DNA of 64,000 bases, taken from a candidate division WOR-3 bacterium (GTDB lineage Bacteria > Hydrothermota > Tepidihabitantia > SM23-42). This document shows positions 22,797-64,000 of the stretch, in pieces. The stretch lies in assembly GCA_020343595.1 (NCBI GenBank), contig CP070802.1, positions 132,989-196,988 of the forward strand, in the 5' to 3' direction. The translations under genes and the position numbers were made by a program. Position 1 is the stretch's first letter; each line of letters starts with the position of its first letter. The notes under the pieces are model-generated. The model searched no databases. It was not told the DNA's origin and was given only the letters and a program-made list of their open reading frames with translations.

Positions 22797-22874
22797 AATG
22801 ACGGACACTTGTAACACAGAAGGAATTCGGAACCCTGGACGTGGTTGCGATTCAATGCAGGGGTTGATAATGTT

Positions 22875-23354
22875 ATGAGTAAAGCAATATACGCAGGAAC
22901 TTTTGATCCCATTACCTATGGTCATATCGATGTGATATCACGTGCGACCAAATTCTTCGATCATGTCGTTGTCGGGGTCAGCGCCGGCCCGAAGACCACT
23001 CTTTTCACACACCGGGAAAGAACAGAATTGGTCAAGGCGGTATTCAAGGATGACAGCAATATCGAGGTGATCGGGTTCTCATCACTGCTCGTTGATTTCG
23101 CACGGAGCATCGGAGCGCAAGTGATTGTCCGCGGCATGCGCGCCGTTTCCGATTTTGACTACGAATTGCAGTTGACCCTCATGAACAGGAATCTGGAGCC
23201 GAAGATCGAAACCATCTTCTTGATGCCCGCGGAGAAATACATCTTTGTCAGCTCCTCCCTTGCCAAGGAAATCGCCGGACTGGAGGGCGACATTTCGAAG
23301 CTGGTTCCTCCCCTTGTAGCAAAAGCATTACACAAGAAGATCTTCAAGAAGTAG
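22875..23354 (+). CDS. coaD: Phosphopantetheine adenylyltransferase CoaD
   Basis: MSKAIYAGTFDPITYGHIDV carries the T/HxGH motif. The start was trimmed from 22845 to the ATG at 22875. Confidence 0.9.
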   Translation: MSKAIYAGTFDPITYGHIDVISRATKFFDHVVVGVSAGPKTTLFTHRERTELVKAVFKDDSNIEVIGFSSLLVDFARSIGAQVIVRGMRAVSDFDYELQLTLMNRNLEPKIETIFLMPAEKYIFVSSSLAKEIAGLEGDISKLVPPLVAKALHKKIFKK

Positions 23355-23361
23355 CTGCTCT

Positions 23362-23485
23362 GGGGTTAGATCTTGACTATTGACAAAAGCTGAGAGTAGA
23401 TAACCAGCAAAGTCTTCATATTCGGAAGCTCTGACGAACTTAACAAGTCCAGACCCAGTATTGTCAATAGTCAAGATCTAACCCC
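23362..23485. repeat. Palindromic element copy 1: perfect 25-bp terminal inverted repeats (GGGGTTAGATCTTGACTATTGACAA / reverse complement) flanking a 74-bp core
   Basis: IR-L at 23362-23386 and IR-R at 23461-23485 are exact reverse complements. A second copy with a different core sits at 61550-61677. Confidence 0.7.
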
Positions 23486-23542
23486 ACGGCTGATTTTCGA
23501 ATCGAAGTTGACTTCACGCCTATATTCGTTATACTTCACAGT

Positions 23543-24493
23543 ATGAAATTCGTCGATGAAGCAACCATTTTTGTTACCTCCGGAGCAGGTGGCAATGGTT
23601 GTATTTCATTCCGTCGTGAAAAATTCGTGCCCAGGGGCGGCCCCGACGGTGGTAACGGCGGCGACGGGGGGTCGGTATATCTGATGGGCAATAAAAAACT
23701 CGCAACGCTGTATGACCTCAAACTACGCCCGCATTACCGCGCCGGCCGTGGTCGGCACGGTAAAGGCAAGAATATGCACGGCAGGACAGGTGAAGATGTC
23801 TGTATTCAGGTTCCGCTTGGCGTTGCGGTTTTTGACAACGGCAGACTGATCGGCGAGGTAGTCGAAGCCGGCCAGAAGATCACTGTCGCCCAAGGGGGCA
23901 TTGGCGGCCGTGGTAACGCCCACTTTGTGACTTCGACTAATAGGGCACCGAGAGATGCCGAGGAAGGCCGCCCCGGCGACACGAAAAAGTTGAAGATCGT
24001 GCTGAAGATAATCTCTGATATCGGCATCGTTGGACTGCCAAATGCCGGTAAGTCGACGCTCCTGAAAGCCATGACCAATGCAAGACCAAAGATCGACAAC
24101 TACCCCTTCACAACGCTCAGTCCCAACCTGGGCGTCTTGCGTGATAACAAGAAGAATATCGTGCTCGCCGACATGCCGGGGATCATTGAAGGCGCACATC
24201 AAGGTAGAGGGATCGGGCTCCAATTTCTCAGACATATCGAGAGGACACACTTGCTGATACTGGTGGTTGACGCATCGGAAGCGGATCCGGTCGGTCAGTA
24301 TCGAGCGCTGATCAATGAATTCAGACAATACGATCCCAATCTGCTGAAGAAACCACGTATTCTGGTTTTCAATAAGATCGATCTTCTTGACCATAAGCCC
24401 ACTGTCCGGCTGAAGGAGAAGGTATTCTTCGTCTCTGCATTAGCGGGAACGGGCATCGATCGCCTGATTGACTATATTAGAAATGAGAATTAA
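23543..24493 (+). CDS. obg: GTPase Obg (ObgE/CgtA), short form lacking C-terminal extension
   Basis: MKFVDEATIFVTSGAGGNGCISFRREKFVPRGGPDGGNGGDGGSVY Obg fold, plus G1 GLPNAGKST and G3 DMPGIIEGA. Confidence 0.9.
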   Translation: MKFVDEATIFVTSGAGGNGCISFRREKFVPRGGPDGGNGGDGGSVYLMGNKKLATLYDLKLRPHYRAGRGRHGKGKNMHGRTGEDVCIQVPLGVAVFDNGRLIGEVVEAGQKITVAQGGIGGRGNAHFVTSTNRAPRDAEEGRPGDTKKLKIVLKIISDIGIVGLPNAGKSTLLKAMTNARPKIDNYPFTTLSPNLGVLRDNKKNIVLADMPGIIEGAHQGRGIGLQFLRHIERTHLLILVVDASEADPVGQYRALINEFRQYDPNLLKKPRILVFNKIDLLDHKPTVRLKEKVFFVSALAGTGIDRLIDYIRNEN

Positions 24494-54793: not shown

Positions 54794-54796
54794 TTC

Positions 54797-54950
54797 GTTC
54801 CCTGCAGTGCCCGTGATCGGTATGAAGTCTTGAGCCAACACCCATCTTAAGGGAGCCAAGTTCGATCAGGGATTTTACCCGAATTCGACTGGCGCCCACC
54901 TTAACCTTGGGTTCAAAGACTTTTTACCACACGGCACTTGCGGGGAGCTT
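54797..54950 (+). ncRNA. ssrS: Candidate 6S RNA (ssrS) between zapA and rny
   Basis: ~150-nt non-coding gap with long-range complementarity between its ends (gaagtctt/aagacttt; gtgcccgtg/cacggcac) closing a central unpaired region. The zapA-ssrS synteny is known from E. coli. Boundaries are approximate. Confidence 0.3.
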
Positions 54951-60034: not shown

Positions 60035-60123
60035 AAAACTGACACAATTACCAATTCATACTTTACATACCATCATTGTAATCAGGTATTCTATCGTTGT
60101 AATCATCCAGCGAAGCTGGAGTC

Positions 60124-60151
60124 TTGACAAAAACTGAGTAGTGTATATAAT
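60124..60151 (+). promoter_or_regulatory. Sigma70 promoter TTGACA-N16-TATAAT upstream of tRNA-Ile
   Basis: ttgaca at 60124-60129 and tataat at 60146-60151. Confidence 0.5.
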
Positions 60152-60208
60152 GGGCAAATTGGCATTTGCTCGGATTTTGGAGTATAAATCTATGTTTCGC
60201 GGGCAAAC

Positions 60209-60282
<74 letters not shown>

Positions 60283-60418
60283 TGACCGGACCATTAGAAA
60301 GTTTGTTTCTGTTTTCTATATCCGGCACAAAGGAGTTGCATCCATTACGGTGCAACTTAAGAATACATGGTAGGGGCAGTAGATTTTGCCCTTGGTAGTG
60401 TTAGAAAAAGGAGGAATT

Positions 60419-60694
60419 ATGATTAGGATAGCAACACTACTGGTAATAGTTGCCTGCCTGACAGTGATCGGTTGCCAACCTCCAGAAGGTATGGCAGGTC
60501 CGACAAAAGAGGAATTCGACGCTCTGAAGATGCAGGTTGAGGAACTGCAGACAAATGTTGCAGATATGCAGGCTGCAATGGACTCTTTCATCGAGCAATA
60601 CAATATGCATATTGAAAAACACCACAAAGGCGGCGCAACAGTAACCAAACCAACCACACCAAGCGGTGGTGTTAAACCCCCGACCCAAAAGTAA
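60419..60694 (+). CDS. Small lipoprotein (lipobox LTVIGC) with coiled-coil segment
   Basis: Start ATG 60419 after AAAAGGAGG. Confidence 0.5.
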   Translation: MIRIATLLVIVACLTVIGCQPPEGMAGPTKEEFDALKMQVEELQTNVADMQAAMDSFIEQYNMHIEKHHKGGATVTKPTTPSGGVKPPTQK

Positions 60695-60703
60695 GGAGGA
60701 GAT

Positions 60704-61489
60704 ATGAAAAAGCTGATAGGCATTACTCTTGCGGTGTCGGCACTTCTGATTCTCGTCGGCTGCGAAGGTGAAGGAGATGGACTAGTAGCTCCAGACGTGA
60801 CATATACTGTAACCGACGACGGCGCAACCCTCGCGCTGGAGTGGAATGCAGTAGATGGTGCTGACGGCTATTACATATATGCAGACGGCATCCTGATCGA
60901 CTCGACCACAGGATTATTCTACGATGCGACGGTACCCGCAGGGTTCTACGGTGTCGCGGCGTATGCTGGCGATGAAGAAAGTGCCACCGACGAGGTAGAT
61001 TGTACGCCGGTCGAAACAGCCAGCATTACTGTTTACGGCAATAGTGACCCAGCTCCGGATCATCCGAGTGGCATCGGCTTTACAGCAGCCGGAGCCTGTG
61101 TGACCCTGGCTCTCAGCGAACAGACTAATTGGCCAGACATCGATTTCTATTTTGACGATGCTAACTTCGCGCAGTTGACTATCGTCTCTCCAGGCGACCA
61201 TGTACCGCCCTATAACGATGAAGAGAACGCGACGGCCGCCAGCGGCACTGATTACGATGCCCTCGAAATCGCTGCCGGTATGGGCAATTATATCACGCAA
61301 AGAACATTGGCAGAAAATGCCGTTCTGTCCTTCTGGATCGACCCGGATGGAGACGGCTGGGGTGATGCAAACGACCACTTCGGCAAAATGAAGATCGTGA
61401 GCATAACCGGTGCTGCGGCACCTTACACTGCCGTGATCGATTGTGCTTATCAACCAATTGCCGGTCTGCGTTGGGTAGTCACGCAATAG
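60704..61489 (+). CDS. Surface lipoprotein, GCEGEGDG family, paralog 1
   Basis: Signal peptide and lipobox LILVGC, followed by EGEGDG. Acidic, Asp/Gly-rich, with DPDGDGWGD calcium-binding-like motifs. RBS AAGGAGGAG. Confidence 0.55.
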   Translation: MKKLIGITLAVSALLILVGCEGEGDGLVAPDVTYTVTDDGATLALEWNAVDGADGYYIYADGILIDSTTGLFYDATVPAGFYGVAAYAGDEESATDEVDCTPVETASITVYGNSDPAPDHPSGIGFTAAGACVTLALSEQTNWPDIDFYFDDANFAQLTIVSPGDHVPPYNDEENATAASGTDYDALEIAAGMGNYITQRTLAENAVLSFWIDPDGDGWGDANDHFGKMKIVSITGAAAPYTAVIDCAYQPIAGLRWVVTQ

Positions 61490-61510
61490 TACAAATCCTT
61501 TTGGAGAAAA

Positions 61511-61539
61511 GGGCGGGCAATGCCCGCCCTTTTTGTTTG
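61511..61539 (+). terminator. Rho-independent terminator (gggcgggc-aat-gcccgccc then TTTTT)
   Basis: 8-bp GC stem with a 3-nt loop and a T-run. Confidence 0.75.
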
Positions 61540-61549
61540 CACGTGTCAT

Positions 61550-61677
61550 GGGATCAGATCTTGACTATTGACAAATCCCACCACCAATCCAATATGCTAC
61601 TGCTGATTGAATCAACAAACAACCAAAGAAACAATCCGTGCATCACAAGCAATTGTCAATAGTCAAGATCTGACCCC
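61550..61677. repeat. Palindromic element copy 2: 25-bp inverted repeats (GGGATCAGATCTTGACTATTGACAA ... TTGTCAATAGTCAAGATCTGACCCC; 1 mismatch) flanking an unrelated 78-bp core
   Basis: IR-L at 61550-61574 and IR-R at 61653-61677. Its ends match copy 1 (23362-23485) at 24 of 25 positions. Confidence 0.7.
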
Positions 61678-61801
61678 AGTATCGATTTAGCCAACAACAT
61701 CGGCCAAATTTGCTGATAGAATAAACACGTCGCAGGTCACTCCGTTGACTTCAACCCCAATTACATATATAATTTACGCGAAGAAGAACAGAGGAGGCAT
61801 T

Positions 61802-62650
61802 GTGAAGCAATTTCTTAGATTATTAGCCGTTAACATAGTCACTGTTGCCATCGCCATATTGTCAGGATGCGAAGGTGAGGGTGATGGTAGCGCACCGCAG
61901 AATCTCGTGCTCGGTGGCACCAACTACGGCCAGGAAGTACTGCTTTCCTGGGAAGAATCGTCCGGAGGTCCGCCCGGCAATTACTTGATCTACTTCCGGC
62001 AGATTGACACGACGGATTTCGTCCTCGGTGCGACGATCAGCGGCGATACGCTGGAATATACCCATGATCCTCAAGGCATGACCGGAGACTACTATGTTGC
62101 CGCAAGATTCGGTGGTACTGAATACAGCTCAGATACCCTCACAACCATCCCCGTGCATACTGATATAGCGCAACTTTCGGAATTGAACGCAGCCGGAGAA
62201 TCAGGATACGGGTGGGCTCTCGCTGGAGATTTCAGCGGCAGTGTCTATGCCATGACCAATGCTTCAAATGCTCCGCTTGTTGATTTTTACGTCACTAACT
62301 TCGCGAACGATTCCGTGAGCGGACCATGGCCTGCTCCTTGGTATATTGCGAGCCCGGACACCGCGGTTGATGATCCAGGCGGCACGTCGGTTCCGCAGGC
62401 TGACTGGCGCGCGACCTGGTTTTCAGACCCGCTGCTCGACCCGCAGGCAATACTGCCTAATTTTGGGCCGACCACCTATTTTGAGTACATGAGTGGCATA
62501 CAGGCCGATACAATATATATTGGCGTATACCTGGAAGCAGAACAGCATTATGCCTTGGCTAAATTCTTTGGTGCGGACACAACGACCGGCACGATGCAGG
62601 TTGAAACCTGGTTCCAGAGCGTGCCGGATCTGCGTCTCTTAGCCCATTAA
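61802..62650 (+). CDS. Surface lipoprotein, GCEGEGDG family, paralog 2
   Basis: GTG start 61802, 5 nt after GAGGAGG. Lipobox ILSGC followed by EGEGDG. A TTGACT-N17-TATAAT promoter sits at 61745-61773. Confidence 0.5.
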   Translation: MKQFLRLLAVNIVTVAIAILSGCEGEGDGSAPQNLVLGGTNYGQEVLLSWEESSGGPPGNYLIYFRQIDTTDFVLGATISGDTLEYTHDPQGMTGDYYVAARFGGTEYSSDTLTTIPVHTDIAQLSELNAAGESGYGWALAGDFSGSVYAMTNASNAPLVDFYVTNFANDSVSGPWPAPWYIASPDTAVDDPGGTSVPQADWRATWFSDPLLDPQAILPNFGPTTYFEYMSGIQADTIYIGVYLEAEQHYALAKFFGADTTTGTMQVETWFQSVPDLRLLAH

Positions 62651-62702
62651 CCGGCAATGGGATCACCCATTATCCATGTATAATAGCATCTCAGGAGGTT
62701 TC

Positions 62703-63314
62703 ATGAAAAGAGTGATATTCTTGATGTTCACGGTATTAGTGTTTTCATATGCACAGTGTTTGTCGGCACCAATAAGCACGCGGGTGGGCGTAAAATTCGG
62801 ATTCAACCCGGGAACATATAACCTTGATGACGGACTCGATGAATTCAAGGGGACGGGTGTACACTTCGGTTTTGGAATGGGAACTGATATCCTGAACTTG
62901 ATAGCCATCGATATGGGGGCACAGTTCAGAACCACGAGTTACAGCCGTGAGGTTTTATCGGTCAAACACACTATTTCCTATAGTAATCTCTATTTTCCCT
63001 TCTTTCTTTCGCTAAAAGCAGGTATGCTACCATTGATTTCTCCTTATATTGGCGCCGGACTTGGGCTCAACGTGCAGTTCAACGGGACGAGCAGCCTCGA
63101 GTCTAACGGTCTCGTCGTAGAGACGCCGATCGAAGGCTCTAACACTAATTTCTTCTTGATACTCGGAATCGGTGCCGAAGTAAAACTACTGAAATTCAGA
63201 ATAATGCCTGAATTCACGGCTAATATCAATGCCCAGGCCGATGATGAAGCAACCGAAGCGACCGAAGAGAACGTTGACTATCATATTTCGGTAGGTTTTT
63301 ATTACGCACCTTAA
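62703..63314 (+). CDS. Outer membrane beta-barrel protein (OmpW/OmpA-like small porin family)
   Basis: Signal peptide, alternating beta-strands, and a C-terminal ...VGFYYAP with aromatic terminus. Start ATG 62703 after CAGGAGG. Confidence 0.55.
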   Translation: MKRVIFLMFTVLVFSYAQCLSAPISTRVGVKFGFNPGTYNLDDGLDEFKGTGVHFGFGMGTDILNLIAIDMGAQFRTTSYSREVLSVKHTISYSNLYFPFFLSLKAGMLPLISPYIGAGLGLNVQFNGTSSLESNGLVVETPIEGSNTNFFLILGIGAEVKLLKFRIMPEFTANINAQADDEATEATEENVDYHISVGFYYAP

Positions 63315-63322
63315 GCTTATAG

Positions 63323-64000
63323 ATGCACGAATACGGCATTGACATTGGCTCGGTAAGTATCAAACTCGCCGAATTTACCGATGGCCATCTCGTTAAGACC
63401 CGGTACATAAAACACCACGGGCAGCCATACAATCTGCTGCTCAATATCTTAAAGTCTGCAGAAGAGATCGACCGGCTCGTCATGACCGGCAGCCTCGTTC
63501 TGCCCCTCACCGATCTGCTCCGCGCAGTTCGTATCAACGAGGTTGAAGCGACTGCAGCCGCAGTCATGCACTTCCATCCTGATGTGAGATCGATCATCGA
63601 AATCGGCGGCGAAGATTCCAAACTGATCAATGTCAACGGCGGAATACGGGATTTCGCATCAAATACCATATGTGCCGCCGGGACCGGTATTTTCCTTGAC
63701 CAGCAGGCACGCAGGTTGCGCTACGACATAAACGATCTGGGGGATGTCGCATTAAGGGCGCAGAAGCCCGCCCGCATCGCTGGCCGCTGTTCGGTCTTTG
63801 CCAAGAGCGACATGATCCATTTACAGCAGATCGGCACCAAACCGGACGACCTGATTGCCGGCCTGTGTCTTGCCCTGGCCCGGAATTTCAAGAGTGTGAT
63901 CGCCAAAGGACGAAGGATTGAAACGCCTGTGGCATTTGTCGGCGGTGTCGCCGCAAACAATGGTATGATCAAGGCATTCCACGATACACTCGAAATCTCG
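63323..64000 (+). CDS. BadF/BadG/BcrA/BcrD-type ATPase (CoA-substrate-specific enzyme activase), 3'-truncated by window end
   Basis: Not in the tool track (no stop in window). Translation MHEYGIDIGSVSIKLAEF... has the acetate/sugar-kinase-fold N-terminus typical of this family and ...CAAGTGIFLDQQ... Confidence 0.55.
   Translation, partial: MHEYGIDIGSVSIKLAEFTDGHLVKTRYIKHHGQPYNLLLNILKSAEEIDRLVMTGSLVLPLTDLLRAVRINEVEATAAAVMHFHPDVRSIIEIGGEDSKLINVNGGIRDFASNTICAAGTGIFLDQQARRLRYDINDLGDVALRAQKPARIAGRCSVFAKSDMIHLQQIGTKPDDLIAGLCLALARNFKSVIAKGRRIETPVAFVGGVAANNGMIKAFHDTLEIS

Follow-up and report, generated by a model that had tools for sequence, protein, structure and literature searches.

The 64,000-nt stretch of DNA analyzed here, referred to as the window, is part of the 2,368,485-bp chromosome of a WOR-3 MAG. 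It contains two paralogous lipoprotein genes, lipo1 and lipo2 (JSV98_00980), whose products share 30% identity over 178 amino acids (E = 5e-12). Between them lies an inverted-repeat element, copy 2, that fills part of the gap from the lipo1 terminator to the lipo2 promoter (Table 1), as the preliminary description had stated. The two 26-nt arms of this element are 78 nt apart and complementary at 25 of 26 positions (96%), with a G to A change at 61553 as the single mismatch. The outer part of the left arm is the GGGGWSAS motif of TIRYTs, i.e., RAYT-like genes with long terminal inverted repeats (TIRs) on both sides, with one G to A change (reading GGGATCAG), and its inner part is a tandem TTGAC-TA-TTGACAA. 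The right arm reads T-GGGGTCAG... and matches GGGGWSAS. The core between the arms drifts in a neutral-like manner and contains neither a significant fold nor a promoter.

Table 1. Features of the window and TIRs of related transposase genes.
Feature	Position (nt)	Strand	Remarks
coaD	22845-23354		
Copy 1	23361-23486	.	arms 23361-23386 and 23461-23486, 26 nt, 100% complementary; 74-nt core
obg promoter	23508-23535		
obg	23543-24493		
6S RNA (SsrS) gene	54796-54950	+	Rfam score 76 bits, gathering score 46
tRNA-Ile(GAT)	60209-60282	+	lone tRNA directly upstream of the three tandem lipoprotein genes
Tandem lipoprotein gene, first	60386-60694		
Tandem lipoprotein gene, second	60704-61489		lipobox context GCEGEGDG, shared with the third
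Intrinsic terminator of lipo1	61507-61539	+	stem 61507-61533, then T run; outside the element; present in relatives with and without it
Copy 2 left arm (TIR)	61549-61574	+	TGGGATCAGATCTTGACTATTGACAA
Copy 2 core (spacer)	61575-61652	.	78 nt; no homologs other than the cores of this locus lineage in relatives
Copy 2 right arm (TIR)	61653-61678	-	TTGTCAATAGTCAAGATCTGACCCCA; identical to canonical arm of the WOR-3 bin53 TIRYT
Promoter of lipo2	61745-61773	+	TTGACT-17-TATAAT; outside the element; kept in relatives without it
Tandem lipoprotein gene, third	61802-62650		lipobox context GCEGEGDG
Left-arm remnant of lost site-B copy	62658-62665	+	8 nt, TGGGATCA
TIR of L018			GGGGTCAGATCTTGACTATTGACAA
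TIR of L019			...CAGGTCTTGAC...
TIR of L020			GGGGTCAGATCTCGAAACTTGACAA
TIR of L021			GGGGTYAAATCTCGAAACTTGACAA
TIR of L008			GGGGTCAAATCTTCACAATTCACAA
TIR of L028			GGGGTCAAATCTAGACATTGGACAA

Copy 1 is an element of the same kind that sits between coaD and obg, beginning 6 nt past the coaD stop codon and upstream of the obg promoter. Its arms carry a matched C to T and G to A change, and its outer motif reads GGGGTTAG, with one change. Searching the window with an arm 25-mer at up to three mismatches gave four matches, compared to 0.00 expected from 100 shuffles. Copies 1 and 2 were the only long inverted repeats detected in the 64 kb, and looser searches for arm variants across the window returned no further arms. 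These results bear out the earlier claim that the element at the lipoprotein genes is the second copy of a repeat whose termini match those of the coaD-obg copy. Its core had also been described as unrelated to that of copy 1; this holds in either orientation (z = -0.4 and -0.6 against shuffles), and comparison of the cores of all different loci in both orientations likewise detected no mutual similarity. At all loci, the cores measure 74-79 nt and the whole elements 126-131 bp, and every copy is intergenic.

We scanned an arm 19-mer, requiring exact matches, through one genome per species and obtained four loci on the WOR-3 MAG chromosome CP070705.1 (bin53, 2.3 Mb). Three of the four are doublets with yet other cores of 77-79 nt. 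At the fourth, the arms (L004 5233-5259 and 6261-6287) flank 1001 nt coding for a 332-aa protein. This protein scores 55 bits with the Pfam family Y1_Tnp (cutoff 23); among NCBIfam models, the REP-associated tyrosine transposase fits it best, although below cutoff, and its C-terminus gives weak matches to DnaA_C/HTH_23. A profile built from 21 family members retrieved weak matches to DnaA domain IV from the PDB, with no solved Y1 transposase among the matches, and a PDB search with a single TIRYT sequence returned no match. The HUH histidines and the tyrosine of the motif SRYxHLN are invariant across the family alignment. Judged by these domain matches, the protein is a predicted TIRYT, that is, a Y1/HUH transposase of single-stranded DNA that resembles RAYTs and has at its C-terminus a helix-turn-helix like that of DnaA domain IV. 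Its large family counts more than 6,700 homologs, for which some sources use the name RayT.

A matched TIR pair bounds every homolog whose context was examined, and the TIR sequence varies along with the protein (Table 1). The arms of L004 (bin53), L018, and L019 are the same as those of the window or differ by one base. Among the variant positions of the TIRs, 20 are altered identically in both arms and nine in one arm only. The TIRs also overlap functional parts of the genes that they flank. Upstream of the gene in L020 and L021, 16 nt separate the inner TTGACA of the left TIR from a TATAAT, and we read the left TIR as the probable source of the TIRYT gene's -35 box. The right TIR codes for the last six codons and the stop (...LSIVKI-stop in bin53; family C-terminus LSxV(K/E)I).

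The genomic setting of the TIRYT gene is stable. Its neighborhood, with MsrAB on one side and Por_Secre_tail and SnoaL-like genes on the other, is shared by three genomes (TIRYT protein identity 100, 76, and 62%). Only 12 of 72,556 plasmid records matched the family, all at less than 37% identity, and the arm was absent from the viral contigs searched. Such a pattern is that of a single-copy, vertically inherited gene, as reported for RAYTs. In the TIRYT cluster P0014, several members are fragments of 163-174 aa and one, annotated as DnaA, consists of the helix-turn-helix half alone, which suggests that some WOR-3 genomes carry split or decaying TIRYT genes.

Within the window, tblastn searches found neither a TIRYT homolog nor its syntenic neighbors (MsrAB, Por_Secre_tail, SnoaL), and the ten closest TIRYT clusters have no member on the window's chromosome. 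The closest relative carries TIRYTs (L019 and L028, contigs from one sample with similar coverage), and its bin53-type TIRYT adjoins an MsrAB that clusters at at least 90% identity with the MsrAB of the window's own genome. A second TIRYT gene in this relative (L028 7426-8481, 330 aa) has its own TIR variant, CGGGGTCAAATCTAGACATTGGACAA. Preceded by a BcrAD_BadFG/DUF2229 gene and followed by a tRNA, it lies ~5 kb downstream of lipo2; the equivalent position in the window's genome lies ~3.5 kb past the window end.

The arms are dispersed in several forms. Doublets occur twice in the window, three times in bin53, once each in L023, L024, and L026, and twice in L028, while solo arms are found at L008:419 and L014:1980. 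At L019 2873-2939, a grouped TIR precedes the TIRYT gene, made up of two left arms in tandem that have the same orientation and are spaced 42 nt apart. A coreless form is present at one locus in three assemblies (L003 629-671; L012 9088-9130; L013 5569-5611); here, the arms are fused at a quasi-palindromic inner 7-mer (TTGNCAA) into a perfect 43-nt palindrome, which is either a product of core deletion or a REP-like basic unit. Genome-contig matches L005 and L007 and metagenome matches L009, L011, L015, and L017 lack the GGGG end and were set aside as chance 19-mer matches. Copy number appears low, with two doublets in the 64-kb window and four loci in bin53, the latter count covering exact 19-mer matches. 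Since the cores of different loci are mutually unrelated, recent bursts of transposition are not evident.

To follow the element among relatives, we distinguished site A, between lipo1 and lipo2, from site B, between lipo2 and an OMP gene. In the closest relative, L028 (92% nucleotide identity to window positions 60108-64000), both sites are filled and all arms are perfect. The window has site A filled and only a remnant at site B, and L023 has site A filled and site B empty. Site A is empty and site B filled in the distant relatives L024, L026, and bin53 (L006); in L024, the core is inverted and the arms are decaying. Both sites are empty in L025 and L027. The comparison of orthologous loci proposed in the preliminary description therefore yields the element at site A, site B, both, or neither, depending on the genome. 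Both lipoprotein paralogs are present in every relative examined, including L025 and L027.

The occupied sites belong together. Cores of this locus lineage are homologous to that of copy 2 (z = 3 to 35), and the site-B element lies 11 nt from the OMP -35 box in both bin53 and L010/L028, which indicates orthology. The L024 core matches in reverse complement only (z = 12-15), so its inversion happened at site B. In the window, site B reads CCGGCAA-TGGGATCA-CCCATTATCCATGTATAAT (region 62651-62684); a deletion has taken the remainder of the element together with 24 nt of flank and the OMP -35 box. That -35 box reads TTGACTTCA in the relatives, and its deletion leaves the extended -10 element TGTATAAT alone in the window, where the OMP gene may, from the layout of its promoter region, depend on read-through from lipo2.

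Several observations bear on how the two sites came to be occupied. The A and B cores of L028 are just 66% identical, which makes the A/B duplication old, and its A and B copies have identical right flanks, an indication that one has converted the other. Recombination or gene conversion, instead of transposition, may thus explain part of the A/B history. A clean cut-and-paste move from site B to site A was rejected, because L028 has both copies and the deletion at site B of the window is imprecise. The promoters of obg, lipo2, and the OMP gene (L010/L028) share an extended -35 region, GTTGACTTCA, a likeness between element-adjacent promoters that may have helped recombination in L028. At L023 1790-1837, a 15-nt tandem duplication, GCCGTGTCATGGGGT, runs across the left flank and 6 nt into the arm, and points to slippage or repair activity at the element end. 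The core of the site-B element of L010 (702-832, on a metagenome contig of 1.2 kb) is of the A type, sharing 85% identity with the A core of L028 and 66% with its B core; this may be due either to conversion between paralogous copies or to chimeric assembly across identical arms, and L010 was left out of the primary evidence for this reason. Comparison of the relatives shows one old lineage of elements at this locus, copied locally, inverted, converted, and deleted.

Arms and core have changed at very different rates within this lineage. Between the window and bin53, the arms differ at 1 of 52 positions and the cores at 34 of 87 (Fisher p ~1e-7); in the lineage overall, the arms differ at 0-3 of 52 positions and the cores at 5-34 of about 80. 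The changes that gene-less doublets have accumulated in their arms comprise six in a single arm and one matched in both, namely that of copy 1. We found no target-site duplications at the junctions of more than ten copies, as expected for Y1 elements, and no consistent target sequence at these junctions.

These findings make it likely that the element is a gene-less TIR doublet of a TIRYT, the TIRYT counterpart of a REPIN. The enzyme would recognize both arms and now and then copy or move the arm-core-arm unit, as do IS200/IS605 and REP/RAYT enzymes; we infer such mobilization from the association of arms and gene, their co-variation, and the comparative dynamics of the doublets. The inner TTGAC tandem may be recognized by the helix-turn-helix and the GGGGWSAS at the outer end by the catalytic domain, possibly on a hairpin formed by the arms in single-stranded DNA. 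The core would be a passive spacer constrained to 74-79 nt in length. This reading would account for an odd repeat that combines conserved arms, unrelated cores, and constant length.

At the lipoprotein locus, the element is an ordinary, slowly moving passenger in the gap between terminator and promoter. The preliminary description had considered that its presence there could relate to duplication of the two genes or to their differential expression, and neither link finds support. The paralogs are old, both occur in L025 and L027 without the element, and the position of the element varies among relatives. Likewise, the terminator and the lipo2 promoter are kept in genomes without the element, so that nothing points to a role in lipoprotein expression, and the core is without a promoter-like site. 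A tempting connection to gene duplication or phase variation is thereby removed.

Selfish mobility by itself does not account for how strictly the arms are conserved at a site that is inherited vertically. One alternative holds that the element is a functional site retained by the host, with the arms serving as duplex sites, at a fixed spacing of about 75 nt, for the DnaA-like helix-turn-helix of a domesticated TIRYT or for another factor; such a site would serve chromosome or replication-fork biology, or local regulation. The arms are indeed nearly invariant at the orthologous site, where the flanking genes are just 68-77% identical and the core is near saturation. All four L028 arms are perfect despite the divergence of its two cores, core length is confined to the same narrow range at all loci, and the TIRYT itself is single-copy and syntenic like a housekeeping gene; mutualism has moreover been argued for REPINs and RAYTs (bioRxiv 10.1101/2021.07.10.451892). 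We nevertheless regard this alternative as unlikely. The element is dispensable, being absent at both sites in L025 and L027 and lost from site B in the window and L023; the arms of L024 are decaying, gene-less doublets gather mutations in single arms, and no conserved class of neighboring gene was seen.

A broader form of this idea, which we consider rather unlikely, is that doublets and TIRYT together form a vertically inherited, host-retained partnership in WOR-3, akin to the mutualism proposed for REPINs and RAYTs, in which the arms are selected double-strand sites for the DnaA-domain-IV-like helix-turn-helix. The arms would then stand about 75 nt apart (about 100 bp from center to center) and would outlast neutral DNA at orthologous sites, possibly even after loss of the cognate gene. 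If true, TIRYT systems would add an independent second example, outside the Proteobacteria, of intragenomic replicators that are long-lived and not parasitic. The locus is suited to this question, as the conservation of the arms can be measured directly against a drifting spacer, and thus bears on whether RAYT and TIRYT repeats are parasites or are retained by their hosts. It also records a doublet history that is rarely available at the level of a single locus, in which the element persisted by vertical descent, gained a paralogous copy 1.1 kb away, and was subject to inversion, decay, and deletion.

It is quite unlikely that the element acts primarily as RNA, with a transcript hairpin serving as a terminator, an attenuator, or a stabilizer of mRNA 3' ends, as proposed for many REP, ERIC, and MITE elements. 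The predicted hairpins are very stable on both strands (-45 to -63 kcal/mol, z about -8 to -9), copy 1 follows the coaD stop with no other terminator ahead of the obg promoter, and the matched change in its arms preserves pairing. This stability, however, comes from the arms alone, as folds of the cores by themselves gave z scores of +0.6 to -3.3, mostly non-significant against shuffles. Copy 2 lies behind a canonical terminator that is kept without the element, so this copy probably sees little transcription; in neither copy is the stem immediately followed by a T tract. Rfam models matched neither copy, whether the whole window was searched at gathering thresholds or both elements at E <= 1, and weak matches fell solely on the neighboring terminator. 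An RNA role is at most a side effect of the TIR doublet, and copy 1 could possibly exert one on the coaD 3' end, given its position.

The arrangement of inverted repeats around a short segment upstream of a surface-lipoprotein gene also resembles an invertible phase-variation switch controlling that gene, and in one relative, L024, the core has the opposite orientation at the same site. Such a switch is very improbable. The lipo2 promoter lies outside the repeats, the segment that would invert contains no promoter-like site, and the other copy in the window is upstream of a housekeeping gene, obg. The arms are those of a Y1 transposase system rather than an invertase, and opposite orientations were seen only in a comparison of species, not inside one population. 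That the element is a MITE of the conventional kind, descended from a DDE-type insertion sequence, is scarcely plausible, for although the small size, the intergenic position, and the 26-nt terminal inverted repeats starting TG...CA would suit one, the copies lack target-site duplications, Y1/HUH transposases are the only genes found between these TIRs, and the cores are unrelated between loci.

The element can be compared with several known systems. Bacterial MITEs such as Correia/NEMIS, ERIC, and RUP are similarly short, non-coding, TIR-bounded, intergenic, and hairpin-forming, but they derive from DDE insertion sequences, generate target duplications, and share a core among copies, none of which applies here. 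The WOR-3 system resembles IS200/IS605 elements (IS608, ISDra2) in its Y1/HUH catalytic core (Pfam Y1_Tnp) and in lacking target-site duplications. The ends of IS200/IS605 elements are, in contrast, subterminal hairpins in the same orientation rather than long terminal inverted repeats, and those elements are multi-copy and often plasmid-borne, whereas the TIRYT gene here is syntenic, single-copy, and nearly absent from plasmids.

REPINs provide a closer parallel. These comprise two inverted conserved repeats around a spacer that varies greatly (its length is 71 bp in the main P. fluorescens family) and are about 100 bp long (Bertels and Rainey, 2011; PMC3337134); the partner RAYT is single-copy, syntenic, and vertically inherited, with the same repeats on its flanks (PMC3337134; bioRxiv 10.1101/2021.07.10.451892). 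The WOR-3 doublets are alike in their inverted conserved arms, variable spacer, extragenic location, and size, in having a partner transposase with these same properties and same-repeat flanks, and in their long persistence, slow turnover, and solo repeats as decay products. They differ in that the arms lack a GTAG tag and do not themselves form a proper palindrome, their sole internal symmetry being a 4-bp stem (GTCA-GATCT-TGAC) that is lost in the variant arm of L008. Furthermore, the spacer does not fold into a hairpin, there appear to be few copies per genome rather than tens to hundreds, and the transposase is about twice as long as a RAYT and has a helix-turn-helix domain.

The closest match is to TIRYTs and TIRtrons. 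These are defined as RAYT-like genes flanked by long TIRs, not REPs; many of their TIRs share GGGGWSAS, some overlap the 5' or 3' end of the gene, and TIRs of "moderately abundant" families are found singly, as dimers, or in groups (Di Nocera, De Gregorio, and Rocco, 2013; PMC3733652). Most TIRYTs are assigned in a later classification to TnpA-Y1 subclass 2.1, with C-terminal Bac_DnaA_C/HTH_23/HTH_28 domains (Quentin et al., 2018; PMC6006769). The WOR-3 system agrees with these accounts in having a Y1/HUH gene longer than that of RAYTs, a Bac_DnaA_C/HTH-like C-terminus, long TIRs with an outer GGGGWSAS that overlap the gene ends, and TIRs dispersed as singles, dimers, and groups at modest copy number. 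It differs from the examples described there in its host phylum, and so extends a kind of system already known to the uncultured candidate division WOR-3. To the descriptions as far as they are covered here, the present analysis adds the TIR as the probable source of the -35 box and as the last six codons and stop of the gene, a spacer of constant length (74-79 nt) and locus-specific sequence, a coreless form that is a 43-nt palindrome, and one doublet lineage that persists across genomes and has there been copied paralogously, inverted, and deleted.
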